In this document: piece by piece, positions 11,965-60,704 of the stretch
Numbering within the stretch: the first letter of the stretch is position 1
Layout: each line of letters starts with the position of its first letter
Assembly (NCBI GenBank): GCA_964487045.1
Contig: CAZAOT010000004.1
Span: 6,605-70,604, forward strand
From: an uncultured Candidatus Saccharibacteria bacterium
Lineage (GTDB): Bacteria > Patescibacteriota > UBA1384 > DTJR01
Length of the DNA: 64,000 bases
Reading direction: 5' to 3'
Translations under genes and position numbers: made by a program
Notes under the pieces: model-generated
Database searches by the model: none
The model's input: only the letters and a program-made list of their open reading frames with translations
What the model was told of the DNA's origin: nothing

Positions 11965-12077
11965 GCCCGTTAGAGATTGAAAGCTACTGCTTTCGACTCT
12001 TCTAGGTGGGCGTTGTTACTTTTACTCATTTTTTAACTGATTCACTTGATTCTCTAGGTTCGTTATCTCTAACGGGC
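11965..12077. repeat. Palindromic repeat element, copy A. Its 13-nt terminal inverted repeats GCCCGTTAGAGAT ... ATCTCTAACGGGC enclose an 87-nt interior
   Basis: The perfect 13-nt inverted repeat was read directly. It fills the 122-nt rpsN-rpsH spacer. The same inverted repeat recurs at 34081-34160 and 60628-60704. Confidence 0.7.
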
Positions 12078-12078
12078 C

Positions 12079-12264
12079 TTACCAAGATGATTTTATTACA
12101 CCAGGGATTTCTCCCTTGCTGGCTAATTCTCTGAAACAAATTCGGCAAATACCAAATTTTCTCATAAAGCCGCGATTTCGACCACATTTTCCACAACGTC
12201 TAATTTTTCTAGATGAAAATTTTGGTGTGCGCTTTGCTTTTTCTATTAATGCAAGTCTTGCCAT
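12079..12264 (-). CDS. rpsN: 30S ribosomal protein S14, Z-type (zinc-binding)
   Basis: 61 aa with C-x2-C...C-x2-C, and ...[11 protein letters not shown]. Confidence 0.85.
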
Positions 12265-12272
12265 ATTTGTCC

Positions 12273-12812
12273 TTAAACCTCTTTAAATATAAATCCTAGC
12301 TTTGTAAAGAATTTTTGTGATGATTCGGCAGACTGAGGTTTTCTAAGTGAAAGACAAACTCCAAGACCCCAGGTTTCCTTAATCTCGTCGGCCTTAATCT
12401 CAGGAAAAATTATCTGATCTCTTACGGCAACATTGAGATTGCCAGATTTATCAAATGATTTAGGATTAATACCTTCGAAATCTCTAATTCTAGGAAACAC
12501 TACTTTATTTAATCTTTCTATAAAGTCATACATTCTGTGGCCTCTGAGCGTTACCTGATATCCGATTAACTGACCTTCTCTGAGCTTAAATCCTGCAATA
12601 GATTTTTTAGCAATATTTGTTTTAGGCTTCTGACCAGTAATTTGGGTTAATTCTTTTTCAATTGCTTCTAAAATATCTTTTCTTTCTCTAAATGGTCCGA
12701 CGCCAACTGTAACAGTAGCACTTTTAAGAAGTGGCAAATCAAATCTATTAACACCTAGCTCTTTACTAAGCTCAGGCAAGATTTCTTTATTTATTCTTTC
12801 ACTTAATCGCAT
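12273..12812 (-). CDS. rplE: 50S ribosomal protein L5
   Basis: Matches the L5 family and sits between rplX and rpsN. Confidence 0.9.
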
Positions 12813-13116
12813 CTAATGACTCCTTACACTTGGCGCATGTTCTTCTTTTTTCTTTGCCTTCGCCAGTATATTTAGCTGAGGTTAATTTTTTGCATCCAGG
12901 GCAGACCAAACTTACGTTTGAGGCGTCAACTGGCATATTTTTATCTATAATTCCGCCTTGTGGATATTTACTGGATGGTTTTACATGCTTTTTATAAAGA
13001 TTTATACCTTCAACAACAACTTTGTTTGTTTTTAAGTCAACTTTAATAATCTTTCCTGATTTGGATCGGTCTTTTCCAGTATTTACTACTATTTGATCGC
13101 CTTTTCTTAATTTCAT
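12799..13116 (-). CDS. rplX: 50S ribosomal protein L24 with C-terminal C4 zinc ribbon (Thermus-type)
   Basis: KOW domain MKLRKGDQIVVNTGKDRSKSGKI, then CPGCKK...CAKCKES. Confidence 0.85.
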   Translation of the reverse strand: MKLRKGDQIVVNTGKDRSKSGKIIKVDLKTNKVVVEGINLYKKHVKPSSKYPQGGIIDKNMPVDASNVSLVCPGCKKLTSAKYTGEGKEKRRTCAKCKESLDAIK

Positions 13117-13124
13117 ATCTATCC

Positions 13125-13493
13125 TTATATTACTTCCTGTGCGAGCGAAATAATCTTTGTATAACCCTTTTCTCTTATTTCCCTTGCAATTGGTCCGAAT
13201 ATTCTGGTTCCTTTTGGTGTTTTATCTGGATTTATTAAAACTACTGCATTTTCGTCAAATCTTATTGCTGAACCATCTTTTCTTCTAAAATTCTTCTTCT
13301 GTCTAACTACAACAGCCTTGTGAAGTTCTTTTTTCTTTACCATTCCTCTAGGGTTGGCTGATTTGATGGTTACAACGCAAATATCACCGATTTCGGCAAA
13401 TTCGTGGTATCCGCGACCCAAAACCCTAATGCACATTGCTTCTCGTGCACCGGTGTTATCTGCTATTTTTACTCTTGTATTTGACTGAATCAT
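13125..13493 (-). CDS. rplN: 50S ribosomal protein L14
   Basis: [26 protein letters not shown]. Confidence 0.9.
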
Positions 13494-13723
13494 TATATAA
13501 CTCTAGTAACTTTAAAATTTTTATTCTTTGAAATTTTTCGACATTCCTCAATCTCGACTCTATCTCCAACTTTACAAGCTGATTCATTGTCATCGGCTAA
13601 AAACTTTTGCGATTTCTTGATGATTTTCTGATATTTAGGGTGCCTTGTCTTGTATTCAAACACTACGCCAACTGTACTTTGACTCATAGACTCGACTGTA
13701 CCGATAATTTTTGTTTTAGCCAT
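13493..13723 (-). CDS. rpsQ: 30S ribosomal protein S17
   Basis: S17 OB fold ...[26 protein letters not shown].... Confidence 0.85.
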
Positions 13724-13724
13724 T

Positions 13725-13934
13725 TTAACCCTTAAAAGATTCTATAATTTTCTCATTTAATATTGTCTCTAATCTAGCTATTTCTTTCTTTAATTTACCA
13801 GTAGAGTTTGAATTTTTCTTACCCTGGTTAGAAAGTGCAGCGCATTCTTCTATCAACTGAACTCTTCGTTTCCCGATTTCATTAACTAGCGCCTTGCTAT
13901 CCATTGACCTAAATTCTTGTACTTTCTTATTCAT
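13725..13934 (-). CDS. rpmC: 50S ribosomal protein L29
   Basis: 69 aa helical protein lying between rplP and rpsQ. Confidence 0.8.
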   Translation of the reverse strand: MNKKVQEFRSMDSKALVNEIGKRRVQLIEECAALSNQGKKNSNSTGKLKKEIARLETILNEKIIESFKG

Positions 13935-14341
13935 TATTCCTTCTCCAAGAAAACAGTCTTTACTGGTAATTTACTAGCTGCAAGTCGCATTGCTTCTTTT
14001 GCAGTTTCCAAATTAACGCCGTCCATTTCAAACAATATTCTTCCTGGTCTTACAACGCTAACAAAATGATCTGGCGCACCCTTACCACCACCCATTCCAA
14101 CTTCATCAGCAGTTTTTGTAACAACTTTATCTGGAAATATTCTTACCCAAATCTTACCGCCTCTTTTGCAATATCTGGTCATGGCTCTTCTGGCAGCTTC
14201 AATTTGTCTAGAAGTAATCCAATTTCTTTCAGTTGATTTCAAAGCAAACTTGCCGAAGCTAATCTGGCTTCCTCTTTCGTCATTTCCTGGCATTTTGCCG
14301 CGGTAATGTTTTCTGTATTTAAGTTTTTTCGGGATTAACAT
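13934..14341 (-). CDS. rplP: 50S ribosomal protein L16
   Basis: [19 protein letters not shown]. Confidence 0.9.
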
Positions 14342-14973
14342 TATTTCACCTTTTCACCAAGATTGATCCAAACCTTGATTCCAATAATTCCATAGGTTGT
14401 TGGCGCATCGTATTTTGCAAAACTGATATCACTTCGAAGTGTTGATAGTGGGATTGAACCATGCTTGAAGCTCTCAGATCGAGAAATTTCAGCTCCGTCT
14501 AGTCTTCCGGCAACTCTGATCATTACACCTTTAGCGCCTGCATCCTTAACCCTCTGGAGGGCTTGTTTTGAAGCGCGCCTAAAAGGCATTCTCTTTGAAA
14601 TCTGCATACCGATTGTTTGAGCAACTACTGCAGCATCAAGGTCAGCTTTCTTAACTTCTACAACTTCAAGTTTGAATTTTTCAGTTACTATCTTTGATAA
14701 ATCTGCTCTGAGTGATTCTAGTTGTTTTCCACCTCTACCGATCAAAACACCAGGTCTTGCAGTGAAGATGATAATATCGAGTTTACCGATACCTCGCTCG
14801 ATCTGAATTTCAGAAATTCCAGCCTGCGGTCCAGATTTCTTTCTAATAACTGTTCGGATTTCGCTATCCTGCAAAAGGTACTTCGAATAATCAGAACCTT
14901 TGGCGAACCATTTGCTCTTCCAGTTATTATAGACACCTAGTCTAAATGCGATTGGATTAACTTTTTTACCCAT
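14341..14973 (-). CDS. rpsC: 30S ribosomal protein S3
   Basis: [24 protein letters not shown] with a KH domain. Confidence 0.9.
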
Positions 14974-15379
14974 TATTTACTTCCTTTTCGCTTGCAGCTT
15001 TCTTTTTATCGAGCTTTTTTGACTTCTTTGGCTTAGCTTCATCAGCTTTTCCTAAAGAAATTTTCAAATGCGACATTCTTTTTTGATATTTTGCACTGCG
15101 ACCTCTGGCCTTAATAAAGAATCTCTTCATTCTGCGACCCTCTTGGGCAATTGATTCTACAATTACCAATTCATCTTCTTTGAAGTCTTTATTTTTGGCA
15201 GAATCTACAGCACTTTTTAAAAGTGAATATGCAAGTCTAGCATTTTTCTTGTTTGTATTTCTTAAAATATCAAGAGCATCTAGCGCCTTTTTGCCTTTTA
15301 TCAAATTCATCACAAGTCTTGCCTTCTTCGGGCTGACTCTTTGTTCTCTTAATGTAACTGTGGTTACTTTATTCATCAT
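14966..15379 (-). CDS. rplV: 50S ribosomal protein L22
   Basis: ...REQRVSPKKARLVMNLIKGKKALDALDIL.... Confidence 0.85.
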   Translation of the reverse strand: MMNKVTTVTLREQRVSPKKARLVMNLIKGKKALDALDILRNTNKKNARLAYSLLKSAVDSAKNKDFKEDELVIVESIAQEGRRMKRFFIKARGRSAKYQKRMSHLKISLGKADEAKPKKSKKLDKKKAASEKEVNNG

Positions 15380-15660: not shown

Positions 15661-15661
15661 T

Positions 15662-31285: not shown

Positions 31286-34042
31286 TTAGAACGAAAGATA
31301 CTTACCAGTTAATGATTTGGCAATTTTAGATACTTTCTCTGGAGTTCCTTCGGCGATGATTTGACCACCTTTTATTCCTCCGCCTGGACCCATATCTATC
31401 ACCCAGTCAGCATTTTTTACTACATCTAGGTTATGCTCAATCACCAACACTGTATTGCCTCTATCAACAAGTTCTTGCAAAATTACAAGTAATTTCTTAA
31501 TATCTTCGAAATGAAGACCTGTAGTGGGTTCATCAAGAATGTAAATAGTCTTTCCGGTAGAAGGTCTCGAAAGTTCACTAGCAAGTTTAATTCTCTGTGC
31601 TTCTCCTCCGGATAAGGTTGTTGCGCTCTGGCCAAGCGGTAGATATCCTAGACCAACTTTCTTAAGGACAGTAAGTTTCTCAATAAGTTCAGCGTGATCT
31701 GAGAAAAATTCATTGGCTTCATCTACGCTTAATTTCAAAACATCCGCAATTGTTTTGCCTTTATATCTAATTTCGAGAGTTTCTTTGTTATATCGCTGAC
31801 CCTGACACTCTTCGCATGGAACATAAACATCAGGCATAAAGAACATTTCGACTTTAATCATGCCGTCACCGCGACAAACCTCACAGCGTCCACCCTTTAA
31901 GTTAAAACTGAATTGGCTAGCATTAAAACCTTTAAATTTCGCTTCTGGAGTTTCAGCAAATAACTCTCTGATCGGGGTGAATATGCCAGTATATGTAGCG
32001 AGGTTAGACCTTGGAGTTCTACCGATTGGAGTTTGATCGATTCTAATGACCTTATCTAGATTGTTAATACCAATCATTTTCTTATACTCTCCAGGCTCTT
32101 CACCTGAGCGATGGTACTCTTTAGCTAGCGCTTTTGCCAAAACATCATAAACCAATGAGCTCTTGCCACTTCCGGAAACTCCGCAAACTGCGATGAATAC
32201 TGATAGTGGAATCGTAACGTCTAAATTCTTTAAATTATTGTGATTAATTTGCTCGATTTTTAGCTCCCCTTTTCCTTTTCGGCGTTTTTTAGGGTAGTTT
32301 ATTTTATCCTTGCCAGAGAGATAACGTCCAGTAACTGATTTATCATTTTTCTTTATCTCACTTGGAGTTCCAGAAGCGATAAGCTCACCGCCGTTTTTAC
32401 CTGCACCAGGACCAATATCAAAAACATAGTCAGCTAATTCTAGAACTGCTTTATCATGCTCTACTATTAATACAGTGTTACCCTCCTCCTTGAGTCGTTT
32501 AAATGATTCAATAATTCTCTCAGTGTCAGCGCTATGCAAGCCAATAGTCGGTTCGTCAAGTACATAAAGCACACCGCTTAGAAATGAATCAAATTGAACA
32601 CCAAGTCTAATCCTCTGCGCTTCACCACCAGATAAAGACTCAGATGACCTAGACAGAGTTAAATACTCAAGACCGACTGAAACGAGGTTATTGAGTCTTC
32701 TAATTAATTCCTTAATGATCGTGTCGCTTCCCGCTGGTTTGACGCTGCTAGCGAAAAATTCGCTTAGAGAATTAACTTCCATATCAGACAGTTCAGCTAT
32801 TGTTTTATCATTAAAGAAAACAGACAGTGCTAATTCATTTAACCTTTTTCCTAGACACTTATCGCAAACCTTCTCATGCATATATTGCTCAATCTCACTT
32901 CTAAGATATTCTGAGTCAGTTTCTAAGTACTTCTTTTCTAAATTTGGTATCACTCCTTCGAAATCTTCATGTCCATATAGGATCGCGCGAAGTGCATCGT
33001 CAGAAAGATTATCAATTGGTTCATCAAGCCTGAAAGCTACCTTTTTGCTTAGATCCACCAAGCTTTTTGTAAACCAGCCATTTTGACCAGCCAAACGTGA
33101 CCAAGGTCTAATCGCCCCCTCTTCTAAAGTTAATCTTGTGTTTGGAATCACCAACTCAGGCTGGACTTCCTTCACTACTCCCAAACCCTGACATCTTCGG
33201 CAAGCTCCATAGGGGCTATTAAAAGAGAAAAGCCTTGGTTGAAGACTAGGAAAAAATATCTGGCAATCAGAACAATACGGGTGTTTAGAAAATATCTTGG
33301 AGTTTTCGCCTCTTTCGACTCTGACAACGTCTTCGCTTAGCTCAAAAGCCTTTTCCAGACTCTGCTCAAGCTCTTTTTGCTCAAGTGGTTTAATTTCTTC
33401 GAGATATTCCTTTCTTAGCACTACCACCTCAATAGTATGAGGCAAACCCTTTTCCAACTTAACGTTAGCTGATTCTTTGGTTGAATATTCATTTCCATCA
33501 ACTATCACGCTTTCGAATTTGGAGTTCTGGAATCTTTCTAAAGTACTTTTATGAATACCTTTTTGGTCTTTTACTATAGTAGCTACTATCTTCACTTCGC
33601 CTGCGTTTTGTTTGAAAAAATCAATCGCGCTTTCTACTATTTCTTTCAACTGGCCTGAAAAAATTGCTTTATTACACTTCGGACATCTTACTGAGCCGAA
33701 TCTAGCAAATAGCAATCTTAGAAAATCATACGATTCCGTAAGAGTACCGACTGTTGATCGTGGAGATCGAACCACACTTTTTTGGTCAATTGCGATAGCT
33801 GGTGGAATTCCCTCGATTGAATCCACATCTGGCTTCTCGATAACACCTATCACTTGTCTAGCATAAGACGAAAGATTCTCTACATACCTTCTCTGGCCTT
33901 CGGCATAGATTGTGTCAAAAGCCAATGATGACTTTCCTGAACCTGAAATTCCACTCATTACTGAAATTTGTTCCTTGGGAATCTCAACAGAAATATTTTT
34001 TAGGTTGTGAGTTCTCGCGCCAGATACTTTAATATTTTTCAT
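31286..34042 (-). CDS. uvrA: Excinuclease ABC subunit A
   Basis: Two ABC ATPase modules ([10 protein letters not shown] / [10 protein letters not shown]) and zinc-finger cysteines. Confidence 0.95.
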
Positions 34043-34068
34043 ATTTTTTTTAAAAAATCCTTTTGGTT

Positions 34069-34160
34069 TAACGGGCCTTGACCCGTTAGAGATATACTTT
34101 ACAAAACCTCGAGGCCCATTTATTGTTTTTAGAGCTGCTAGCGCAGATCTCTAACGGGCC
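34069..34160. repeat. Palindromic repeat element, copy B: an extra half-site TAACGGGCCTTG, then ACCCGTTAGAGAT, a 53-nt interior, and ATCTCTAACGGGCC
   Basis: The same inverted repeat as copies A and C was read directly. It lies 27-118 nt upstream of the uvrA start, in the divergent intergenic region. Confidence 0.65.
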
Positions 34161-34306
34161 TTGGAGGATTATACTAAAAAATAAAACGAAAATCAACACC
34201 TCAATAATCCTAAAATATTTTCTTGATTTTAATAATCGATGTGTTACATTTTGAACATATTTAGTTGGCTTAAATTTCAAATGAAGTAAGCAAGAAAGGA
34301 AGTGGT

Positions 34307-48381: not shown

Positions 48382-51300
48382 TTAGCTACTGGCTTCACTC
48401 CTAAGCCTCATTCTTAGCCCGCCCGCCGAGTGATTTCCACTAATTCGTCCCCCACCTCTAAACTCTACATAATGATCTCCGCCGGGAGAAGGTACGACAT
48501 TAACAGTGGCCTCTACCGGCTCAATAATATATGCTGACTGCTCACTACCAAACCTTTTCGTCAGGATGTCACGACTAAGCCCAGCCGTCGAAAGAGCACT
48601 GTCAGTGATAAATATGGATACTTTAGCTTTTGGCGCTTTAGCCTTAATAGCTGCGAGCTTTTTGGTGACAGCGGCTAAATGCCCATAGAGAATATCGGGC
48701 GAGTGGTTCCCGTAAATCTGGTCAAACACAAAGGACATTTCTTGCTGCTCGCCAATTGTAATCGGCTCAAAGAATACTATCTCGTCGGAAATACTACCTT
48801 CGTTAGCATCCTTGTTAGCATCTTGGCTGTATAAGTAGAATTTGTTCGGATCACCAAAAGTCAGATTTGTATCATTATTGCAACCCGTAGTGTTACACGC
48901 CAAACACTGTCTCATATTCTCGATAATAGGAATCCAGCTATTTGTAATATTGCTGTTTATAGTTAGAGCTGAATCACTTCCTCTTAAATTCCTTAACACC
49001 TCTTGCGTCGCGGTTTGATATTGAGTTGCGCCCTGTTTTTGTGACTCATCGAGCATAGTCTTGAGTTTGTTTTCAATTTCCAATATCGCTTTTTCAAGCA
49101 CAGTCATCTGCTCCCTAATCTCCTGGAGATAAGCAGCTATTGCATCTTTATCCTCTTTTTCGGTGATCTTCTCCTGATTCTTCGAAGCAATACTCTCTAG
49201 ATAGATTAAGTCCTGAGAAATTGCTCGTGCTCCCGAGTCGGTTTTAAACTCCTCGCCTATATCATTAAAGATCCTTACTATGTTAGCGTTTGGTACAAGC
49301 TTCGCACGTAAAGCGTCTACCAGTTTTCGATACTCCGTTCGCTTCTCGACCAAATTCATTGAAGTTGTCGCCAGCTTCACCGTTGATTGTATTGACTTAA
49401 GCTTTTCAATAACCGGCATATCCGAATTCAACTTATCAACTGCCAAGAATTCTTCAACGATATTAAGTTCTTCTTCGGATATCGGTAAATCCTTCCCCAT
49501 TTCAATCTGTATCTTTTTTGCCAAAGCGCTGTTGACCTTACTCGAGCTATAATGCTCGACTAGCGATACATAAGGACGCATTTCTTCTGGATAAGTATCG
49601 GGATCAGCATAAACCTCTAATGCCAATAAAATTCCTTCTAGTTTATCATCCACTGTACGAATATTCCCAAGATGCTGAACTATTACCTCTTCTTGTAATA
49701 TGGGCTGAATTTCAGCGAGCTCCTGGTCGGACAAACCGATTACTTCAGTTGGAATAAATGCTGCCTTATCTCTTTCTTTCAAGTACTCTTTGATATATTT
49801 GTAATGCTGGTTATCCGCTGAAAAATATTCCACCAACTCCTTTTCTAAGTCATCCCCCCTAAACATTTTCCCTTGTCTAAACTGATCCCACTTACCATTT
49901 ACAGTCAGGGCCAAAAAGAGCATTAATAAAGCTGTTTTCTCTTCGTCCTTCGATTTTATATTGCCTAAATAGATCAAGATATCCTTTAACGCTCGAATAT
50001 CCTTGACCTCCATTTTCTCAGGCAACTTATCAAATCCAAGCCTGTCTTTGAAACTTACTTGAAGCCTAGAGAGGGTTTCTTTTTTAAATTCTTCGATTAC
50101 CCCTACCCGATCATTACCCAGCTCAAGCTTATCTGAAAAATCCTTCAGAAGATTCCTAATTGGGAGCAAATCCCGCACACTATATTCCTTGGCTTCTTCC
50201 GGCAAGTGCGTACCAAGAGCGCCGACTTCTGGATTTTTAGGTGGTTGTTTTTGTTCAAGAACAACAAGCTGTGCCTGAAAAAGAGGATAGATATTCTCGA
50301 CGAAATCTTCTAATTCTTTTGGATTAAGCTGTTTAAAAATACGATCGAAATCCTTATACAAAGCAGGCGATGCACCTAATATTTCCTTGGTTACACCATA
50401 AAAATATGATCTGTCTTCATTTCCCCAGCGATTTTTATCAAAGTAAGCTTCTTGGTCCATGAGCATCTGCCCCAGCTGGCGCTTGGTCTCAAAAGCTGTA
50501 TGTCCTTTTAAAAACGCACTATCCATTCCTTCGATCAAACCGGCCATTGCTTGTATATGCCTTAAGTGCCCCGCACCTTCGTTTTTTTGAATGAGTCTAG
50601 CTAGCAAGACCGCATCGACGTTTGATTTAGATTCGGTGAGCTTTTGGATATGATCAAGATAAGCCTTTCGATAATTTTCAAAGACGAAGCTCATTACTTC
50701 AGGATCCTTAAAATAATCTTCGATCCACTGAACTTGCGTTCCCCCCATACTTCTAACAAACCCAGAGAGATAAATAACCCAGTTATCTTTAGTAATAGGT
50801 TGTGTTTGTTCAGGATTATTCTTGGCAAAGTCATATTCAGGAATTCTTGAGCTTTCAAGTAAGGCTGTGTTTTCCTCGCTTAGTCTGCCGGCATAATGCT
50901 CAGCTACTACAAACTTCAAGCCGACATCACTTGCTTGCATATTTTCAAGAATAATTTTACAAAGCCGTTCAATGCTTTCCTGAGGATGCTTTTCGCGGTT
51001 TCTAATGATGTCTGAAACAATGTCTCTAAGCCCCCATATTGATGATTCTTCTGGTATCGCTCCATGCATTTTTGCCAGAGAATCTAGAGCTAACTCGATA
51101 TCAACCTCGTCAACGTTAGAGCCGCTCTTATTATCTAGTAAAATCATTTTCATAACCAAGTCATCACTCTGCTCTAGCAATGATTGCATCGCTGTTGCTT
51201 GATCTAAAAATATCGCGTCAAGCCTCTTTTGGGTCTTAGCGTTGCCCATCCGAATAGCAGATTTGAATATGTTATTGAGTATTAACGCGACAAATCTTTT

Positions 51301-53835
51301 TTGCTGACTAGTCCCGTCTCTGAGCAAATTTAAATGCTGGTCTATGACTTTTTTGCGCTGATTTATTTGTTCCTCATCTTCAAGATTTTTAATTAGCGTC
51401 CATCTGCCAATTTCAGACGAAATTGCGTCAGCAATCGCCTTAAAGCTCTTTGGATCTTTTGCACCTTCGTAGTATTTGGTCAAATACTCGATCGCCTCTG
51501 GTTTACCGTGGACCGAAGCGCGGGCAAGCGACTGGGCAAACTCATTATCCATCGCCTCAGCAATTGGCTTTTTTTCATCAAGCGTCTTTAAAAACTTTCC
51601 ATAAACCTCACTTGGTCCAGCCATACTTAAAAGCATCAATATATTGTTTCTGTCTTGATCTTTTAGGCTCTCAATAAAATTGAGGTTTTCCATGGACCTC
51701 TCGACGATACCTGGTAAAAAATCTAAAGAGCCCGGCTCAATAGAATCTGAAGTCAATCTCATTTTCATATGATTGATATAATCAATATGTTCAGATTCGG
51801 GAGCCGCATCAAATATTCGCGCTGCATATCGGCAATTATCCTTAGTCAGATATCTCTGCAAATAATCTTTAGCAATAACTGGTTCCTGGAGTGCCATTTC
51901 TATTATGTCGCCTTGGCCATCACTAACTTCGTTAGCTGTGTAAGCCAAATGTGCATATAATGAAATTTTTTCTCTCCTGGAAGCTCCACTAAGCAATCGC
52001 TCAGCAACCCTAGCAAAATTTTTTCCTTGTATGCGACGAAACGATTCGTCATATATTCTTCTGGCCCCTAAAGGACTTCTGCTATTTTGAATCAGCCGGC
52101 GCAGGCCTGTATTTTCTTCACGAGCCAAAAAGGCCTTTAACTCTTCCTGATCCAATCCTGCAACGTAACTATTATATGCATTAGGAACATCGCTACGCGA
52201 TGAGTACATCAGTGGCCGCTCACCCGATCCCCCGGGTTGAGTATAGGCAAAAAATGTCAGTATTGGTAATGCCTCAACATTCTTAAATTTAGTTAGCTGC
52301 AACTCTAATTCTGCAGCATCATGGCGCATCTCACTTCCCTTATCAAAAATCATCTCTAACCTTGCGTCGATGATCATTTTTTCGACCTGGTCTAGCCTTT
52401 CCTTGGTAAATCTATCGATCACCTCCGGATCACTCCTAAAAGCATTCCAGAGATCAGGGTCCAACATAAACGGCGCCAGTGCATTCTTTTTTGCGCCTTC
52501 TAATTCGGTTTTTTTATTTCTGATCAGAGACTCTGTGCTATACCACCCAGAGCTATAATCAGTGGTGGTCACAAACCGATCGGCAATTTCAATCTGTCGA
52601 TTGATGAGCTGAATCATCTCAAAACGCACATCTCCCTGGAGAATCTTGGCAACAGGAGTGACATCGATTTCCTGAGGAATTCGTTCGATCTGAGAGCTTA
52701 AATAGCTTACGTCAAAATATTGGCAAACCTTTTCTATCTTGATGCCTAAATCACGAACTAGTTCCTCTTCTTTCTCTGGCTGAGCTGCTTTGGCAATAAG
52801 AAATTCAGAAATATCTTTAGTCAACCCCTCAACCATTAAGAAACCAGAGGGAATATGGTAGGAGTCTATTATTTGCTTCAGCTTTTCACTTATGAGGCTT
52901 AATTCTATTCGTTTTTTAGCTTCCTGGCTAATCGCTAAATCTTGGTTTTCGACTGTTTGGTCGAGATCGGGATAAGTAACATTTTCGATTCTTTCTCCAA
53001 TGTTGTGATTGATTATGGCAATTAGTTTTTCTTTAGAATATTCCAAGTCATAATAGCCTCCTACAGGATAAATCACTGCCTGCTTTAGATCCAGTAGTTC
53101 AAAATAGTCCTTTTGGATCGCCGCCCGCTGTACATCATTGGCTAAAAGACGGCGGCGAGCCTCCTTAATATCTTCATCTTCGCGGCCAAAAGCTTTTCTA
53201 ATCTTTCGGATTGGATGCATGTGATAATGTCGGTAAATCAGGTCACGATCGGCCCAGGTTTGATCGGTTAATTTATCAAGCCTGCTTCGCATATCTTCGA
53301 CTGATTCGGCGCCATGCTCAGCCAATAGTTTTTGAGTCGAGGTTGCTACAGCACTCTCGACATATTTTATAAACGAATTTATCTTTTGAGCATCTTCTAG
53401 CCTGATTCTCTCAAGATTTTCAATTTCGCTGATAAGCTCAACCGCTTCCTCCACCCGGACCCCTGCTTGAGCATCATCTTCCTTGAAAGCCTCCATTTTT
53501 TCATTGAGCGCTTTGTAGAGCTTTTCGGTCATATCCTTAATATCGCCAACATGCCCCTTCATCTGAACAATAAATGCCTTAATATCCGGCACCTCAACAA
53601 CTCTACCTGGTGGCTCAGACGCTGTCGGTTCCGTTACATCAGTCGCTCTACTCTTTATCTGTTCAGCTCTAGACTTTTTGACTGAGCGAGCCGCGGCGGT
53701 AGCTTCTAAAATTGCTTCCAAACTATTCAGTTCAGACTCAGTTTGGACAAAAATATCACTCTTGGCTCCAGACTCAGCAACTGGCTCACCAACTTCTTGC
53801 TCCTCACTACCAATAATTTCCGGCTGATCCGGCAT
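48382..53835 (-). CDS. Giant 1817-aa soluble hypothetical protein (ORFan)
   Basis: One uninterrupted ORF with an AAGGAG ribosome-binding site. No signal peptide, TM helix or recognisable catalytic motif. It appears predominantly alpha-helical and acidic, with a Cys cluster (CLACNTTGC) near the C-terminus. Confidence 0.6.
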   Translation of the reverse strand: MPDQPEIIGSEEQEVGEPVAESGAKSDIFVQTESELNSLEAILEATAAARSVKKSRAEQIKSRATDVTEPTASEPPGRVVEVPDIKAFIVQMKGHVGDIKDMTEKLYKALNEKMEAFKEDDAQAGVRVEEAVELISEIENLERIRLEDAQKINSFIKYVESAVATSTQKLLAEHGAESVEDMRSRLDKLTDQTWADRDLIYRHYHMHPIRKIRKAFGREDEDIKEARRRLLANDVQRAAIQKDYFELLDLKQAVIYPVGGYYDLEYSKEKLIAIINHNIGERIENVTYPDLDQTVENQDLAISQEAKKRIELSLISEKLKQIIDSYHIPSGFLMVEGLTKDISEFLIAKAAQPEKEEELVRDLGIKIEKVCQYFDVSYLSSQIERIPQEIDVTPVAKILQGDVRFEMIQLINRQIEIADRFVTTTDYSSGWYSTESLIRNKKTELEGAKKNALAPFMLDPDLWNAFRSDPEVIDRFTKERLDQVEKMIIDARLEMIFDKGSEMRHDAAELELQLTKFKNVEALPILTFFAYTQPGGSGERPLMYSSRSDVPNAYNSYVAGLDQEELKAFLAREENTGLRRLIQNSRSPLGARRIYDESFRRIQGKNFARVAERLLSGASRREKISLYAHLAYTANEVSDGQGDIIEMALQEPVIAKDYLQRYLTKDNCRYAARIFDAAPESEHIDYINHMKMRLTSDSIEPGSLDFLPGIVERSMENLNFIESLKDQDRNNILMLLSMAGPSEVYGKFLKTLDEKKPIAEAMDNEFAQSLARASVHGKPEAIEYLTKYYEGAKDPKSFKAIADAISSEIGRWTLIKNLEDEEQINQRKKVIDQHLNLLRDGTSQQKRFVALILNNIFKSAIRMGNAKTQKRLDAIFLDQATAMQSLLEQSDDLVMKMILLDNKSGSNVDEVDIELALDSLAKMHGAIPEESSIWGLRDIVSDIIRNREKHPQESIERLCKIILENMQASDVGLKFVVAEHYAGRLSEENTALLESSRIPEYDFAKNNPEQTQPITKDNWVIYLSGFVRSMGGTQVQWIEDYFKDPEVMSFVFENYRKAYLDHIQKLTESKSNVDAVLLARLIQKNEGAGHLRHIQAMAGLIEGMDSAFLKGHTAFETKRQLGQMLMDQEAYFDKNRWGNEDRSYFYGVTKEILGASPALYKDFDRIFKQLNPKELEDFVENIYPLFQAQLVVLEQKQPPKNPEVGALGTHLPEEAKEYSVRDLLPIRNLLKDFSDKLELGNDRVGVIEEFKKETLSRLQVSFKDRLGFDKLPEKMEVKDIRALKDILIYLGNIKSKDEEKTALLMLFLALTVNGKWDQFRQGKMFRGDDLEKELVEYFSADNQHYKYIKEYLKERDKAAFIPTEVIGLSDQELAEIQPILQEEVIVQHLGNIRTVDDKLEGILLALEVYADPDTYPEEMRPYVSLVEHYSSSKVNSALAKKIQIEMGKDLPISEEELNIVEEFLAVDKLNSDMPVIEKLKSIQSTVKLATTSMNLVEKRTEYRKLVDALRAKLVPNANIVRIFNDIGEEFKTDSGARAISQDLIYLESIASKNQEKITEKEDKDAIAAYLQEIREQMTVLEKAILEIENKLKTMLDESQKQGATQYQTATQEVLRNLRGSDSALTINSNITNSWIPIIENMRQCLACNTTGCNNDTNLTFGDPNKFYLYSQDANKDANEGSISDEIVFFEPITIGEQQEMSFVFDQIYGNHSPDILYGHLAAVTKKLAAIKAKAPKAKVSIFITDSALSTAGLSRDILTKRFGSEQSAYIIEPVEATVNVVPSPGGDHYVEFRGGGRISGNHSAGGLRMRLRSEASS

Positions 53836-54159: not shown

Positions 54160-55083
54160 ATGGACCAAGTTTCACAATCTGCGCCAAGCGAGCAAGCATC
54201 ACTGCAGGCGCCTAAAAAATCGAATACTTGCCTTGTCGTTGCGATAATTTTATTTATTATTTTTATAGTCCTTGCTGCTGGAGGATATTTGATTTACAAA
54301 AAAGGCTCAGGCGTATTGAAAAGTGCTGTTAGCTCAATAACGCTTAATCCGAACTGTAAACAAAATGATCCAGATTTGTGCAAATTCCTAAACAACTGGC
54401 AATCGATTGATTATTTTACCGCCAATTCAACTTCAACGTTTGAAGGTAAAGAGCAAAAATCAGTTATGAAGTCTGTCGGAGATGATAAATTTCAAATGAC
54501 TAATATTACTGGTGGAAGTGAAAATTACAATATGATTTCTATCGGCAACACTACTTATACAAAAGACTATACAGATGGCAAATGGCTCAAAACTACTCTT
54601 GAGCCAACCAAATCAGATGCAAGTGCGACTGAAATAAAAGACGAATTTGATTTTAACGTCGAAGAAGATCAAACGACTTACAAAAAAATAGGCAAGGAAG
54701 CTTGCGGCAAATTGACATGTTTTAAATATCAGGTTATAGATCCACAAATGGCCGAATTAAACAGCAAGGAGTATATACTTTTTGACGACAAGGATTATCT
54801 GCTACGAAAAACCATTACCGAAGGACCGGACAATAATTTAGCGACCAGCGAATTCGACTACTCAAAAATTACAATCATCGAGCCCTCACCGATCAAGGAA
54901 GGCCCCACTAATATCCAGATCCAAAGCACTACCTCTGGCTCATCGAGCACAAATACCACCTCAAACTCAAGCTCTGATTCCGAGCAAACGATGGAAGAAA
55001 TTCAGCAGGAACTAGAAAATATTAGCACTGAATTACAAAACGCCGATCAACCAGCTATTCCCGCCGAACCTGTTGTCGAGTAA
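54160..55083 (+). CDS. Membrane-anchored extracytoplasmic hypothetical protein
   Basis: N-terminal TM helix (CLVVAIILFIIFIVLAAGGYLIY), then a Ser/Thr/Asn-rich ectodomain. Confidence 0.5.
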   Translation: MDQVSQSAPSEQASLQAPKKSNTCLVVAIILFIIFIVLAAGGYLIYKKGSGVLKSAVSSITLNPNCKQNDPDLCKFLNNWQSIDYFTANSTSTFEGKEQKSVMKSVGDDKFQMTNITGGSENYNMISIGNTTYTKDYTDGKWLKTTLEPTKSDASATEIKDEFDFNVEEDQTTYKKIGKEACGKLTCFKYQVIDPQMAELNSKEYILFDDKDYLLRKTITEGPDNNLATSEFDYSKITIIEPSPIKEGPTNIQIQSTTSGSSSTNTTSNSSSDSEQTMEEIQQELENISTELQNADQPAIPAEPVVE

Positions 55084-57106: not shown

Positions 57107-57161
57107 TAAACTTAAAAATTGCCGACTTGTCACGGGCAAGGTCAAGCGGTAAAGTCTTTTT

Positions 57162-58004
57162 ATGGCCGAATACAAACCGCCGCGCTCAGCAGCTTGGAAT
57201 TTCCACCCGGAAAACTCAAAACCATATCGAATGAGTCGATCTGGCTTAGAGTTATTTGTGAAGTGCCCAAACTGCTTCTATATCGATAAAAGACTTGGTG
57301 TGGCTCCCCCACCAATCCCTTCATTTACCTTGAACTCAGCTGTCGATCATTTGCTCAAAAAAGAATTCGATATTCATCGCGCCAAGGATACCCGCCATCC
57401 ACTGCTTGAAAAGTATGGCGTCGATGCCAAGCCCGTCAATCACGAACGCCTGGAAATTTGGCGAGATACTTTTAAAGGTATCAGCACGCTACATCAAAAG
57501 ACTAATATCGAATTTTACGGTGGAATTGACGATCTTTGGATCAATTCAAAAGGTGAATTTATAGTTGTTGATTATAAAGCGACTTCCAAAGATGGCAAAA
57601 TTGATATCGATGGCTTCTGGCAGCAAGCCTATAAAAGACAACTTGAAATTTATCAATGGATTTTAAGGCAAAGCGGATTTAAGGTTTCGAATAAGGGATA
57701 TTTTGTTTATTGTAACGGCAAGAAAGACCGCTCAGCCTTCGACGGAAAATTAGAGTTTGACATCGAACTAATCGAATATATAGGTGATGACTCGTGGGTT
57801 GAGCCTACTCTTATTAAAGCTAAGCAGTGTTTAATGCAAGATGCTCCGCCACCACCGAGCGAAAACTGCGAGCTTTGTAGATTTAAAAAAGCAATTGATG
57901 ATACTAAAAAGATTGGAAAATCTGGTTTGGACGTGAAAGAAAAAAGTAAATCTGAAGAAAAAATCGACAAACCAACAAAATACGTCAAAACTCAGCTTTT
58001 ATAA
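57162..58004 (+). CDS. Cas4-like / RecB-family PD-(D/E)xK nuclease with a 4-Cys Fe-S cluster signature (stand-alone)
   Basis: N-terminus RMSRSGLELFVKCPNCFY matches the Cas4 S-x-S...CP motif. The nuclease core is GIDDL ... VVDYK ... QLEIYQWIL (D, D/E-x-K, Q-x3-Y). C-terminal cysteines are C-x12-C-x2-C. Confidence 0.65.
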   Translation: MAEYKPPRSAAWNFHPENSKPYRMSRSGLELFVKCPNCFYIDKRLGVAPPPIPSFTLNSAVDHLLKKEFDIHRAKDTRHPLLEKYGVDAKPVNHERLEIWRDTFKGISTLHQKTNIEFYGGIDDLWINSKGEFIVVDYKATSKDGKIDIDGFWQQAYKRQLEIYQWILRQSGFKVSNKGYFVYCNGKKDRSAFDGKLEFDIELIEYIGDDSWVEPTLIKAKQCLMQDAPPPPSENCELCRFKKAIDDTKKIGKSGLDVKEKSKSEEKIDKPTKYVKTQLL

Positions 58005-58008
58005 AGCA

Positions 58009-58040
58009 ATGGCCCCTCAAGCGTCAGCCTGAGAGGCCAT
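58009..58040. terminator. Imperfect GC-rich hairpin (ATGGCCCCTCA-N11-TGAGAGGCCAT) between convergent genes
   Basis: Read directly. A U-rich tail is present on the minus-strand side. Confidence 0.4.
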
Positions 58041-58065
58041 GAAACGACTAGCTGTCGATCATCTG

Positions 58066-58533
58066 CTAGATACGACCGCGCATCAAGTGGCGACCGAGGT
58101 TCTCGGGCAAGCCGAATGACCTACTCGAGAACTTCCCTGCGATGAGGTCAGCCTGAACCTCTTCGTCGAGAACCTCGGCACGAACGATCAGCTTGACTGG
58201 CTTCTGACCTTCGTCGTAGATCGGCTCTATCGCCGTCCAGCCATCGGGCAGGAATTCCTGCGTGGCGTTGGCGCTCTTGAAGCGCTCGAAAAGCGCATCG
58301 GTGACGGCAGGAGGCAAGCAATACTCATTGAGCTTGCACACCCCTTCGACGCAGGCGGCGATCGCCGCGTCCATAGAGGCATCACCGAGCGCATCAACTC
58401 TTCGCGCGATCACATGCGCAGCGGCACGTTCATACTTGAGCGAGACTTCCTCGTGACGCGCGACCAGATCCTCGGCACTTACCTCCGCCAGAAGAAGTGC
58501 ATCTTCCAGGATGCGACCGATGGTCTTGTTCAT
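58066..58533 (-). CDS. Hypothetical protein (GC-rich islet)
   Basis: GGAGGG ribosome-binding site. About 55% GC. Confidence 0.4.
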   Translation of the reverse strand: MNKTIGRILEDALLLAEVSAEDLVARHEEVSLKYERAAAHVIARRVDALGDASMDAAIAACVEGVCKLNEYCLPPAVTDALFERFKSANATQEFLPDGWTAIEPIYDEGQKPVKLIVRAEVLDEEVQADLIAGKFSSRSFGLPENLGRHLMRGRI

Positions 58534-58626
58534 GTTCTTACCCTCCGTATTCTCCCTAGCTTAAGCCGGGGTATGTCCAACAAGTAATTGCCTACGTTTC
58601 TTTCTTGGTATACAGCTTGCGAGCGT

Positions 58627-59043
58627 CTAGTCGGAATTCTCAGGCGGGAGCGTGCGCTCGATCGAGGTTGGGCAGACATCGTTACCACTCCTGACCTTGA
58701 CCTCCCAGGCTGGGTAGATGACTTCAACCTCGCAGATATTCTGCACCACCTCGATCAAATCAGCACCGAAATTGATAATCGCCATTTCGGTCACAGCCTG
58801 AGGCAGTGAGCCTTTCTCCTGAGTGACCAAGGCAAGCGTCAGAAGCTTACGCACCTTGGTTACCTGAACCACACACGCAACGTGCGACATCGCCCAGGCC
58901 AGGTGCGTAATCTTAGCCATGAGCATGCTTTTCGGCTCGCCAGCCTCACAGCATGCCTCGAGGTCATCGATGATCTGGCCTAGCGGCTTTTGCTGCCCAG
59001 CAAGATCACCTTGAAGCTTCGAGAGCTCCTCTCGCGGATTCAT
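58627..59043 (-). CDS. Hypothetical protein (GC-rich islet)
   Basis: The start is set at the ATG at 59043 (MNPREEL...), which has a GAGGAGG ribosome-binding site. Its promoter reads TTGATA-17-TAATAT. It diverges from the polymerase operon. Confidence 0.4.
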   Translation of the reverse strand: MNPREELSKLQGDLAGQQKPLGQIIDDLEACCEAGEPKSMLMAKITHLAWAMSHVACVVQVTKVRKLLTLALVTQEKGSLPQAVTEMAIINFGADLIEVVQNICEVEVIYPAWEVKVRSGNDVCPTSIERTLPPENSD

Positions 59044-59143
59044 GAACGTCCTCCTCAGCCTATTTGTAGGGTGCAAGCTTATGGAGCGAATATTACCTTT
59101 TTTAACGCATATTATCAAGGCTTAAATTCAAAAAATATCACTA

Positions 59144-59173
59144 TTGACATGTTCGGGTTTTGTTCGCTAATAT
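59144..59173 (+). promoter_or_regulatory. Sigma70-type promoter (TTGACA, 18-nt spacer, TAATAT). The spacer holds a GTTC-N7-GTTC direct repeat, and the transcript appears leaderless
   Basis: ctaTTGACAtGTTCGggttttGTTCGcTAATATtaaattATG. The -10 element ends 6 nt before the ATG at 59180, and there is no Shine-Dalgarno sequence. Confidence 0.5.
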
Positions 59174-59179
59174 TAAATT

Positions 59180-59428
59180 ATGGATCAAACAGCACTTAAT
59201 GAACCAATCAGTGTCTTAGCCAGCTTCAAGGAAGGCCGGCCCACTCCTCTTATTTTTAAACGTAATGGTCGCAAAACCAGGCTAGAAACAATCGACCTCA
59301 AATACGATTATCAAATTGGCGAGACTAGAGTTTATGCTTTCTCTGCCTCCGCCGGCGGAAACACTTATAAAATTACATTCAACAATAAATCTTTGCAGTG
59401 GATACTGGAAGAAATTGCCTGTGGATAA
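59180..59428 (+). CDS. Small 82-aa protein translationally coupled to the Y-family polymerase (possible polymerase accessory factor)
   Basis: Its stop (TAA at 59426) overlaps the GTG start of the polymerase (tGTGgaTAA). It sits behind its own strong promoter. Confidence 0.45.
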   Translation: MDQTALNEPISVLASFKEGRPTPLIFKRNGRKTRLETIDLKYDYQIGETRVYAFSASAGGNTYKITFNNKSLQWILEEIACG

Positions 59429-60671
59429 TAAAAGAATTATTCTCCATATCGATATGAACTCCTATTTTGCTTCTGTCGAGCAGCAAGCTAGGCCAGTGCT
59501 TAGGGGTAAGCCAATTGGCATTGTCGGCTCGCTAGACAAAAAAAGAACGATCATCGTCGCTGCTTCTTATGAAGCCAAAGCGCTTGGCATCAAAACCGGC
59601 ACTCAACTCTGGGAGGCCAAAAGGCTCTGTCCTCAAATCGAATTAATTTCCGCTGACTGCCAGCGCTATGAAGCAATTACTCGCCAATTTTTAAATATTT
59701 TTATTTCTAAAACTCCCCTCGTTGAGATCTTCTCTATCGACGAAGCCTTTCTTGACGTGACCACTCAAACAAAAAATTTTGAGCAAGCCGAGAAGCTGGC
59801 GCTGCAAATCAAACAAGAAATTAAAGAAACGATTGGGGCAAGTATCCGTTGTTCAATCGGCATCGGCAGCAATAAATTTATTGCCAAACTAGCATCCGAA
59901 GCTAAAAAGCCAGATGGTCTAACGATTGTGCCGCCAGGACAAGAACAAGATTTTGTTGATCAATTTGAGCTTAAAGATGCTTGTGGCATTGGCTTTCGGA
60001 CTGACGCTCATCTTAAAAAGCTTGGGATTAATTCTTTTAGAGATTTACGCGCAAGACCACTAACTGACCTTACCCTTATCTTTCATTCGTACGGACTAAA
60101 ACTCTACCGCATGGCGCGCGGAGAGGATTTTGACAAAATTAAGCCCTACTATGAGCGCGAATTACCTAAAAGTTTTTCCAGAAGCAAAACCCTAAGGCGA
60201 GACGTATTTGATAAAAATGAAATTAAAAATTTTATCATGGCTTTTGCCGCTAATATCGCCGAAGAGCTCAAAAACAAATCACTCTTAGCCACAAACGTTG
60301 GACTCTACCTGCGTTTTAACGATTTTAGAGGATATTCGGCCACGATAAATCTTAAAAAATCTACGAATTTCAGTTTAGACTTCTTTAAGGCCTGCAGTAA
60401 AATGCTTGATAGCATTGAACTTAACAAGCCAGTTAGAAAAGTAGGTATCTGGATCGGCAAACTGCAAAATGATCATGGACAGGAACTTATTTTTAAAGAA
60501 TTATCAAAGCCCGTCAAGCTCGAAAAAATTAGCGAAAAGATCAACCAGAAGCATGGCGACAACCTGGTCTTTAGGGCCAGGCTTGCCGGATTAAATTTCT
60601 TTGGTAAAACACCAAATTACGGATTTACCCCGTTAGAGATTTTTGAAGATATAAAAAAATCTAAGGAGTAG
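59421..60671 (+). CDS. Y-family translesion DNA polymerase (DinB/UmuC-like)
   Basis: (V/M)DNKRIILHIDMNSYFASVEQQ matches the DinB/UmuC N-terminus. Also has SIDEAFLD and GIGSNKFIAKLASEAKKPDG. The start is set at the GTG at 59421; the ORF-finder's ATG at 59316 adds non-homologous residues. Confidence 0.85.
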   Translation: MDNKRIILHIDMNSYFASVEQQARPVLRGKPIGIVGSLDKKRTIIVAASYEAKALGIKTGTQLWEAKRLCPQIELISADCQRYEAITRQFLNIFISKTPLVEIFSIDEAFLDVTTQTKNFEQAEKLALQIKQEIKETIGASIRCSIGIGSNKFIAKLASEAKKPDGLTIVPPGQEQDFVDQFELKDACGIGFRTDAHLKKLGINSFRDLRARPLTDLTLIFHSYGLKLYRMARGEDFDKIKPYYERELPKSFSRSKTLRRDVFDKNEIKNFIMAFAANIAEELKNKSLLATNVGLYLRFNDFRGYSATINLKKSTNFSLDFFKACSKMLDSIELNKPVRKVGIWIGKLQNDHGQELIFKELSKPVKLEKISEKINQKHGDNLVFRARLAGLNFFGKTPNYGFTPLEIFEDIKKSKE

Positions 60672-60704
60672 TATTTAATTGATATTACCGGATCTCTAAC
60701 GGGG
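60628..60704. repeat. Palindromic repeat element, copy C. CCCCGTTAGAGAT and ATCTCTAACGGGG flank a 51-nt interior that spans the polymerase stop codon
   Basis: Read directly. The left inverted repeat encodes TPLEIF within the last 14 codons of the polymerase. Confidence 0.65.

Follow-up and report, generated by a model that had tools for sequence, protein, structure and literature searches.

Bacterial miniature inverted-repeat transposable elements (MITEs), such as Correia/NEMIS of Neisseria, RPE of Rickettsia, ERIC and RUP, are short, multi-copy sequences that carry terminal inverted repeats (TIRs) and are flanked by a short target duplication. IS200/IS605 insertion sequences (ISs), together with PATE/REP-RAYT, depend on an HUH Y1 transposase and possess neither TIRs nor flank duplications; in IS200/IS605 the 3' tetranucleotide is borne by the element. 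IS1380 duplicates 4-5 bp of target, and its eukaryotic counterpart is piggyBac, whose transposon-end hairpin carries off the 4 nt that flank it. Free-standing GIY-YIG homing endonucleases (I-TevI/Seg) exceed 200 amino acids, contain a separate DNA-binding domain and enter a cognate allele by homology-dependent repair, and their genes have no terminal repeats or target duplication. The compact genomes of Patescibacteria, or candidate phyla radiation (CPR), are usually described as poor in mobile DNA. This study concerns a family of miniature palindromic elements, three copies of which (A, B and C) lie in a 64-kb stretch of contig CAZAOT010000004.1 (assembly GCA_964487045.1) from an uncultured Candidatus Saccharibacteria bacterium, referred to here as the window.

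The closest published system is Ssn/NTS, in which hairpin repeats, themselves amplified across the genome, lie on both sides of the gene for a small single-domain GIY-YIG protein (cd10448) (Chenal et al., 2025; PMC11893778). Ssn nucleases bind the hairpin and cut single-stranded DNA a few nucleotides 5' of it, and the authors noted the IS-like repeat-gene-repeat architecture and raised domestication or a mobile origin as a hypothesis (PMC11893778). Taken jointly with the explanation by a nuclease-bearing cassette developed below, it is likely that the three inverted-repeat pairs of the window are the TIRs of three independent insertions of one miniature-element family. This family is apparently undescribed: literature searches with the arm sequence returned only unrelated primers, and none of the literature found deals with MITEs in CPR or with mobility of UPF0213/COG2827/YhbQ proteins or describes these elements.

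The three pairs were noticed in an earlier sequence-only reading of the window, and they are real. The exact 12-mer CCCGTTAGAGAT occurs six times in the window, always within one of the pairs (11966-11977/12065-12076, 34082-34093/34147-34158 and 60629-60640/60692-60703), against a chance expectation of 0.21 from dinucleotide shuffles, and 0 of 100 shuffles attained six occurrences. When three mismatches are allowed, 48 arm matches compare with 40.7 expected; since this is no excess, the window consists of three sharp copies and one decayed half-copy (at 34067). The repeat length of 13 nt given for the family is correct for copy A (G...C), but the repeat spans 14 nt in copy C (AC...GT) and stops at 12 nt in copy B, where A at 34081 faces C at 34159. 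The extended arm said to be common to copies A and B, ATCTCTAACGGGCCTT, is present as a sequence, although it proved to be composed of the arm, a terminal C and the flanking tetramer CTT(A/G). The interiors of 87, 53 and 51 nt in copies A, B and C are mutually unrelated, as had been stated, and are singletons in clustering. The copies, 77-113 nt in length, are without a meaningful open reading frame (ORF), and their placement at gene boundaries was confirmed: between the rpsN stop and the rpsH ATG, in the uvrA leader, and at the 3' end of dinB, which copy C has replaced. Pfam and NCBIfam scans of the window ORFs agree with the reading that no transposase or integrase is present, and no recombinase was found either. 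Known RNAs in the window are RNase P RNA and two tRNAs, none of them covering the elements, and Rfam yielded no element match in the whole window at gathering thresholds or in eight loci at E<=1. The GC content of the window is low (0.39), the genome is of the Patescibacteria/CPR type, and the closest named ribosomal S8 proteins belong to Berkelbacteria-like metagenome-assembled genomes (MAGs).

Orthologous loci were compared for empty sites and target duplications, and the RNAs were folded, both as the sequence-only reading had proposed. Copy A (11965-12077, minus strand) is a 113-nt element with 13-bp TIRs, G+CCCGTTAGAGAT...ATCTCTAACGGG+C, so that the window reads TGG-TAAG-G[CCCG...CGGG]C-TAAA-TAAAATG. 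The rpsN-rpsH spacer measures 122 nt in the window and in every contig with an identical S8 protein, and only 4 nt (TGG TAA TATT ATG) in four relatives whose S8 is 83% identical (L123-L126). In the duplication register -5 to -2, the left tetramer TTTA (11961-11964) matches the right tetramer CTTA (12078-12081) at 3/4 positions; on the transcribed strand these flanks are TAAG, which includes the rpsN stop codon, and TAAA. The 87-nt interior contains a 6-bp hairpin (minus strand) abutting the rpsH-proximal arm, and the predicted RNA fold of the copy (-32 kcal/mol, z = -4.1) places a strong 113-nt hairpin in the mRNA of the spc operon. A more distant relative (L127, S8 71% identical) has decayed family copies at the rpsN/rpsH junction (2872-3000) and at the L18/S5 junction (4183-4296) of the same ribosomal-protein operon, with the internal block AACCAACATAAC in common. 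These copies imply that rpsN/rpsH is either a repeatedly hit site or the place of an old insertion that was lost in the 83%-identical lineage.

Copy C (60628-60704) is a 77-nt ORF-less element, C+CCCGTTAGAGAT...ATCTCTAACGGG+G, within the 3' end of a gene for a DinB-type Y-family polymerase (Pfam IMS/IMS_C hits on the ORF). It replaces the last six dinB codons and encodes instead the final 14 residues (TPLEIFEDIKKSKE) and the stop codon, such that the window protein ends in ...TPNYGF-TPLEIFEDIKKSKE and the close DinB homologues all end in ...TPNYGF-KKDYKV. The original 3' end is intact but displaced to 60709-60728 on the plus strand (..AG AAA GAT TAT AAA GTT TAA, KKDYKV*), and is collinear with the loci L129 (GGATTTAAAAAAGACTATAAAGTTTAA) and L130. 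Removal of 60628-60708 (77 + 4 = 81 nt) restores the frame GGA TTT AAG AAA GAT TAT AAA GTT TAA and a DinB terminus, ...TPNYGFKKDYKV*, equal to that of an 81%-identical homologue (P0122), with whose DNA it is collinear; the reconstructed empty allele is CCAAATTACGGATTTAAGAAAGATTATAAAGTTTAA, and the site is empty in relatives that are 81% and 69% identical. The left tetramer TTTA (60624-60627) is original dinB sequence (GGA TTT A..) according to this reconstruction. The right tetramer assigned by frame restoration, TGAA (60705-60708), differs from it and is the commonest of the family, yet the adjoining 20 nt are undisturbed. This mismatch suggests that an element can bring its downstream tetramer along when it moves. 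Copy C has a predicted RNA fold of -34.4 kcal/mol (z = -6.3). A PD-(D/E)XK/Cas4-like nuclease ORF lies at 57162-58004 (+), ~2.6 kb upstream of copy C; no link between it and the elements was found.

Copy B (34081-34159) is a 79-nt ORF-less element with exact 12-bp arms and a 53-nt interior, located in the leader of uvrA (ORF 31286-34042, minus strand, with its ATG at 34042). Its flanking tetramers, CTTG at 34077-34080 and CTTG at 34160-34163, are a 4/4 duplication, compared with agreements of 3/4 for copy A and 2/4 for copy C. A promoter-like site for uvrA, TTGATT-17-TATAAT (34168-34196, minus strand), recognized from 10/12 consensus matches only, lies outside the element as context; copy B begins ~9 nt downstream of this -10 box and has its other end 39 nt before the uvrA ATG, which puts a predicted hairpin roughly at the start of the uvrA transcript. 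The extra half-site that had been reported near copy B is present at 34067-34076 (TTTAACGGGC) and has the CTTG tetramer in common with it. By its sequence, TTTAACGGG+C with one mismatch to the 9-nt core, it is the decayed right end of an older copy that abuts copy B across one shared tetramer.

The count of three copies greatly understated the family. In a scan of one genome per species for the exact arm pair with 40-70-nt interiors, the pair was found in at least 117 stretches of reference genomes, which consist of MAGs and single-cell genomes. Hosts among the matches listed include Saccharibacteria, many Parcubacteria/Paceibacterota, Omnitrophota, Planctomycetota, Elusimicrobiota, Nitrospirota (Nitrospiria), Binatia and Gammaproteobacteria, with up to 3 copies per 8 kb in the reference-genome loci. 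The GC contents of these loci, between 0.27 and 0.61, show that misbinning of a single lineage does not account for the spread. A scan of viral contigs gave 0 elements. Further copies at the same loci have arms that vary at positions 9-12, always symmetrically (12/12 complementary), as in the co-varying pairs GAAAT/ATTTC, GAAGT/ACTTC and GAAAG/CTTTC, around an invariant core CCCGTTAGA. The 121 copies form 96 clusters by interior, and some genomes hold near-identical copies at different genes.

The flanks of these copies identify the family as mobile. Positions -5 to -2 agree with +2 to +5 at identities of 0.88, 0.82, 0.79 and 0.86, falling to ~0.3 out of register, and 87 of 120 copies (72%) have a perfect 4/4 duplication, compared with 9.5 for shuffled partners (maximum 20). 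Positions -1 and +1 are complementary in 111/120 (C/G 60, T/A 51), so the element proper comprises 13-bp terminal repeats and a 4-bp duplication. A 6-bp duplication was considered, as was a tyrosine-recombinase overlap, and both were rejected, as the outer positions are only 47-49% identical. The duplicated tetramers are mainly TGAA/TTCA (29), TCAA/TTGA (17), TAAA/TTTA (16) and TCCA/TGGA (8). Palindromic tetramers (TTAA, TATA, TGCA, TCGA), which make up 22% of the TNNA background in the same loci, served as the duplicated flank in 0/73 cases (P ~1e-8). Together with the empty orthologous sites, the 4-bp duplications bear out the MITE-like nature that had been offered as one of two possibilities for the window copies.

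This geometry predicted that abutted copies would share one tetramer, and metagenomes were therefore scanned for a right arm followed within 1-14 nt by a left arm. Among the 50 loci obtained, the spacer is exactly 6 nt (R-TNNA-Y) in 48/52 junctions, the product of re-insertion beside existing ends, and the junction between the half-site at 34067 and copy B has the same arrangement of right arm, 6 nt and left arm. Some of the loci carry arrays: three or more head-to-tail mini-copies with a 33-nt interior, GTAAAC separators and a period of 63 nt in L139 (10412-10594) and L145 (135-317), and two mini-copies with GTTTAC between them in L156 (1123-1242). These arrays could reflect repeated re-insertion or tandem duplication.

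Larger size classes at the abutted-copy loci, with interiors of ~160 nt and 251-258 nt, revealed a coding form of the element. The 251-258-nt interiors encode a protein of 85-95 amino acids whose only domain is GIY-YIG (PF01541, E 1.5e-14 to 1.9e-17, 54-64 bits against a curated cut-off of 22.6). The complete element of ~280 bp amounts to one gene, with a reading frame that runs from arm to arm. The left arm, CCC GTT AGA GAT, codes for P-V-R-D and the right arm, cTA TCT CTA ACG GG, for L-S-L-T-G. When the flank is TGAA, its upstream copy supplies the start (ATG AAY CCC...) and its downstream copy the stop (..ACG GGR TGA), and the nuclease TGA overlaps the regenerated host start codon as ATGA, an arrangement seen in L135, L151, L171 and L180. 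Copies in other tetramers use an internal ATG ~21 nt inside the element, giving an 86-residue form.

A homology search with the nuclease as query matched at least 2,338 protein clusters. In the best 120 of these 2,338 clusters, 77 proteins are exactly 95 amino acids long, 93 have PVRD near the N-terminus (68 begin MNPVRD) and 109 end in ..SLTG; their annotations are only "GIY-YIG nuclease family protein" or "putative endonuclease", and they come mostly from Paceibacterota/Parcubacteria. At two independent host loci, which were retrieved through the protein and not through the arm pattern, the flanks are ATGAAT|CCCGTTAGAGAT...ATCTCTAACGGG|ATGAAT and the ORF overlaps the following gene by 4 nt; that gene encodes a membrane protein at one locus and RuvX at the second. 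Across 103 full-length sequences (mean pairwise identity 71%), the GIY tyrosines, Y-T-G, L-R-K-R, H, Y-Y-E and R-E are nearly invariant, and this near-invariance of catalytic-type residues argues for an active nuclease under selection. The closest solved or annotated relatives are the UPF0213 proteins 1ZG2 (E 2.4e-10), 1YWL and Bacillus subtilis YazA (43% identity); group I intron endonucleases are matched only weakly in NCBIfam (E 1e-3 to 1e-4), below the cut-off. Not all such GIY-YIG genes are mobile, as the distant gene in L087 has no terminal repeats at all; for the same reason the idea that this gene co-varies with different terminal repeats was rejected. In L161, two solo right arms, each following a GIY-YIG C-terminal remnant, bracket ~3.5 kb (5219-8793) with ORFs that, by reading of their translations, appear to resemble AbiEi, AbiEii, a sugar-phosphate isomerase and RadC. 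This stretch may be an accessory island caught between element ends. A 3-kb candidate for an autonomous element in L161 was discarded as a chance arm-like match inside an ORF.

The full-length copies also explain the structure of some of the short ones. They contain an internal inverted repeat, one half of which (..ACGGAAACGC..) lies at the L-R-K-R-F codons and the other (..GCGTTTCC-T) beside the right arm, and the halves co-vary (GGAAGCGC/GCGCTTCC). In alignments, many short copies consist of the first ~45 nt, the internal repeat closed as a hairpin, and the right arm, and differ from the full length by a 150-190-nt internal deletion between the repeat halves. A strict signature, defined as the coding tail xTCC-T beside the arm and a 7-nt inverted partner upstream, is present in 8/120 copies of the genome set, 26/67 of the metagenome set and 0 shuffles, and a deletion origin is thus established for a subset of the short copies. 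A hairpin of at least 6 bp abuts one arm in 46/120 short copies, window copy A included. An apparent extended -10 promoter, TGTGGTATTAT, in some short copies is a remnant of the nuclease W-Y codons.

Insertions are strongly biased in position and direction. In 45/118 short copies the element is directly followed by the start codon of an ORF that is 80 amino acids or longer, and the genes are unrelated, among them those for L21, L9, RecG, RelA/SpoT, DnaG, aminoacyl-tRNA synthetases, RNase R, MurD and RsmH. The duplicated ATG is found on the far side (-6 to -4) in 34/44 start-abutting copies (ATGAAT|element|ATGAA...), and in 15/44 a -10-like hexamer peaks 6-7 nt upstream of it, the spacing expected for leaderless transcripts. 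Other copies end an ORF in the TAG of the arm or adjoin stop codons or TTGAC boxes. When copies are oriented by the coding tail, the right tetramer is TGAA in 27 and TTCA in 0, TTTA in 5-6 and TAAA in 0, and TTGA in 3 and TCAA in 1, giving the oriented target consensus T-K-N-A. The TGAA bias is explicable by selection, because only a TGAA context provides the start and stop of the ORF and spares the host gene, and the TTTA bias and the missing palindromic tetramers suggest an intrinsically asymmetric step. A supposed leucyl-tRNA synthetase cluster retaining orthologous copies turned out to be a mixed cluster of class-I aminoacyl-tRNA synthetases with unrelated element-adjacent genes. Frame-specific translational coupling of the MNPVRD.. 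peptides of short copies was also dismissed, as arm-TAA stops occur in 9/35, about the chance value of 1/3. Element sequence contaminates gene calls, in that some host proteins gain an arm-encoded ...(K)ISNG-M... extension and spurious MNPVRD... peptides are called from short copies. In four species with Nomurabacteria-type genomes (L005, L047, L080, L100), one copy is kept at a common position before an RNase R-like gene, where a TGnTATAAT-like box precedes it and the start codon follows, and it shows no flank duplication (GGCCTGT|...|ATGAAA). The RNase R-like N-termini are much diverged among these species as judged by eye. This copy may be a retained or co-opted leader.

These observations can be combined in a model in which the element lies with the same 4-nt target on either side, TGAA being the most frequent. 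On the A|TGAA of a host start codon, the nuclease gene would take its ATG and stop from the target copies, and, since this stop overlaps the host ATG (ATGA), translation of the host gene can continue by coupling. Short copies would arise by internal deletion and decay, typically between GGAAACGC...GCGTTTCC, with the ends alone kept. The nuclease would recognize the arm and cut at the adjacent tetramer, possibly on single-stranded folded DNA, and host ligation or repair would complete the move. We infer that the process is orientation- or strand-specific and possibly acts, like Ssn nucleases, on single-stranded hairpin DNA. Judged from sequence, the chances are about even that the GIY-YIG nuclease is the mobilizing enzyme. 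We also infer that the window copies descend from the form carrying the nuclease gene or depend on it for their movement, a link drawn from their arms and flank geometry, as their interiors do not carry the strict signature. It is possible, although we lean somewhat to the doubtful side, that the arm-bounded cassette constitutes a new class of autonomous prokaryotic mobile element that is mobilized by its own nuclease, a relative of the Ssn/UPF0213 proteins, and has as its non-autonomous offspring the thousands of ORF-less palindromic copies in Patescibacteria and other phyla, those of the window included; at ~280 bp it would perhaps be the smallest such element. On this view, insertion at host start codons would let it exploit the expression signals of the host gene.

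Several observations weigh against the explanation by a nuclease-bearing cassette. The 64-kb window contains no GIY-YIG ORF, so nothing in it shows what moves or moved its copies; their interiors gave no nhmmer match to the full-length profile and contain no statistically detectable ORF remnant, the fragments in short interiors being too short to score, and 0/3 have the strict deletion signature. The 117 genome loci include a single GIY-YIG gene, and that one lacks arms. Singleton interiors account for 96/121 copies, and the two-GC-hairpin and AACG.. sub-families have no demonstrated link to the ORF form. All loci were retrieved by exact arms, hence arm conservation cannot be measured without bias. 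Avoidance of palindromic tetramers is explained by none of the models considered, and the TGAA and orientation biases could stem from selection for expression rather than from the mechanism. Finally, GIY-YIG enzymes have no known strand-transfer activity, which leaves the passage from cutting to a 4-bp repeat unexplained.

In a rival explanation, the copies are ordinary MITEs of a conventional DDE transposon (IS1380/piggyBac-like), with an unseen transposase that binds the 13-bp repeats and makes 4-nt staggered cuts and the GIY-YIG ORF as a passenger or secondary capture. TIRs with a 4-bp duplication, excision that seems footprint-free from the clean empty sites, and CCC ends with a 13-bp terminal repeat as in piggyBac all fit such a transposon, and a piggyBac-like carry-off of the flanking 4 nt could explain the TTTA/TGAA flanks of copy C. 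Yet no transposase is present in the window or recurs in the 0.75 Mb around the 117 elements, where the protein families recurring near elements are housekeeping genes only, and no locus (117 + 50) contains a long arm-bounded element. TTAA is the duplicated site in 0/87, the flanking tetramers have a strong orientation with respect to the interior that would not be expected of a symmetric transpososome, and the GIY-YIG ORF is the only gene ever found between arms, which belong to its frame. We therefore consider a DDE origin unlikely. Domestication, with copies kept for a host function in an Ssn/NTS-type system rather than as selfish mobile DNA, is to be doubted to a slightly greater degree. 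A small single-domain GIY-YIG gene flanked by inverted repeats amplified genome-wide is the Ssn architecture, the abutted arms form a hairpin with a 13-bp stem and 4-nt loop, and an orthologous copy upstream of RNase R is kept in four species. Patescibacteria are thought to rely on DNA uptake, which also accords with such a role. The published SRM motif, HGTCWYN(0-2)YYVSBRHN(0-5)WNVSBRGN(0-2)RNCYNB, was, however, found in 0/201 elements searched with +/-40 nt on both strands, while an NTS control matched. The closest sequence relatives are the UPF0213 proteins named above, not a demonstrated Ssn, and when plasmids were searched by tblastn for an Ssn reference with SRM flanks, the only genes obtained were UPF0213 genes of the YazA type. 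Selfish insertion is shown by the flank duplications, the empty orthologous sites and the disruption of dinB, and later co-option is compatible with it.

Two readings without mobility of the MITE kind are each very improbable. One holds that the pairs are fixed cis-regulatory hairpins or operators, either SOS-type for uvrA and dinB or stems for mRNA processing or stability. It draws on the location of two of the three copies beside DNA-damage genes, on strong predicted RNA hairpins (z = -4 to -6.3) and on the position of copy B at about the uvrA transcript start. The sequence-only reading had likewise allowed for a protein-binding or RNA stem-forming motif, and took three copies genome-wide at conserved orthologous positions as the mark of ordinary regulatory hairpins; more copies were found, as were empty rpsN/rpsH and dinB sites. 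Empty sites in close relatives and flank duplications thus speak against a motif as what the elements primarily are, although any copy that is co-transcribed must form a strong hairpin all the same. Moreover, copies stand beside dozens of unrelated genes, Rfam gave no match even at permissive thresholds, and copy C truncates dinB from inside its coding region. The other holds that they are sites of site-specific recombination, of the integron attC, Xer/dif or invertible-promoter type. The arm GTTAGAG/CTCTAAC recalls the attC core GTTRRRY/RYYYAAC, two abutted arms make up a lox- or dif-like 12-6-12 palindrome, and variable interior lengths are also a feature of attC. But attC has the cores in the order RYYYAAC ... 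GTTRRRY, whereas here GTTAGAG is first and CTCTAAC last; the window contains no integrase or recombinase, and the copies are isolated in housekeeping operons, not in cassette arrays. The duplication is 4 bp instead of a 6-8-bp overlap, outer positions matching at only 47-49%, and orthologous copies occur in one orientation only.

If the preferred reading, insertion of miniature relatives of a nuclease cassette, is correct, a very large and unannotated set of GIY-YIG mini-genes, those clusters that match the query, would acquire a biological role, and many of the short palindromic insertions found between genes in Patescibacteria/CPR and in other uncultured phyla would be explained. This reading would also supply evidence of mobility, in the form of duplications, filled and empty sites and deletion derivatives, for the hypothesis raised in the Ssn/NTS work. 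Transposition by a nuclease alone would mean one more class of enzyme beside the DDE, HUH, serine and tyrosine transposases, and the nucleases may be new sequence-specific DNA-cutting tools. The design is unusual in that terminal repeats double as codons, start and stop come from the target duplication, and translation is coupled to the host gene. In practice, the arm is a simple marker for annotation, and the strings MNPVRD... and ...ISNGM... flag spurious or extended ORF calls. The insertions in the window alter real genes: DinB has a changed C-terminus, uvrA a changed leader and the spc operon a changed spacer.

Elsewhere in the window, a 1,817-residue ORF at 48382-53835 (-) has no NCBIfam match, and neither Pfam nor NCBIfam gave a match for the ORFs at 54160-55083 (+) and 60775-61620 (-). 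The largest direct-repeat family of the window is a GAA/GAC-rich low-complexity repeat at 62735-62923 on the plus strand, whose product, were this frame translated, would be an acidic stretch of Glu and Asp.

Compared with the known systems, the elements share with Ssn/NTS a single-domain GIY-YIG protein of fewer than 150 amino acids (here 85-95), a repeat-bracketed gene, amplified repeats and occurrence in many phyla. They differ in that each arm is a 12-13-nt half-site inside the reading frame, not a self-contained hairpin, and in that 4-bp duplications, filled and empty sites and ORF-less deletion derivatives reveal transposition. As in MITEs, the copies are short, non-coding and multi-copy, with TIRs, a 4-bp target duplication and presence or absence at orthologous sites, and they insert at gene boundaries or in frame and form hairpins when transcribed. 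The probable parent here, by contrast, is a ~280-bp GIY-YIG cassette rather than an IS with a DDE transposase, and the very diverse interiors, the same arms across phyla and the strong start-codon bias set the family apart. With piggyBac/IS1380 it has in common 13-bp repeats beginning with CCC, a 4-bp target and clean empty sites, but no DDE transposase was found here, TTAA is never used, the target is asymmetric and insertion is oriented. The resemblance to IS200/IS605 lies in a very small unit, hairpin DNA, ORF-less palindromic derivatives amplified in the genome, a 3' tetranucleotide that may belong to the element in both, and oriented insertion beside a tetra- or pentanucleotide (TTAC or TTGAT there; TGAA-Y, TTTA-C and TTGA-C here), in contrast to which the present elements possess a GIY-YIG gene, TIRs and identical tetramers on both sides in 72% of copies. 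Like homing endonuclease genes, the cassette is a selfish gene whose sole product is a GIY-YIG nuclease, but the protein has 85-95 amino acids and its element occupies many non-homologous sites.

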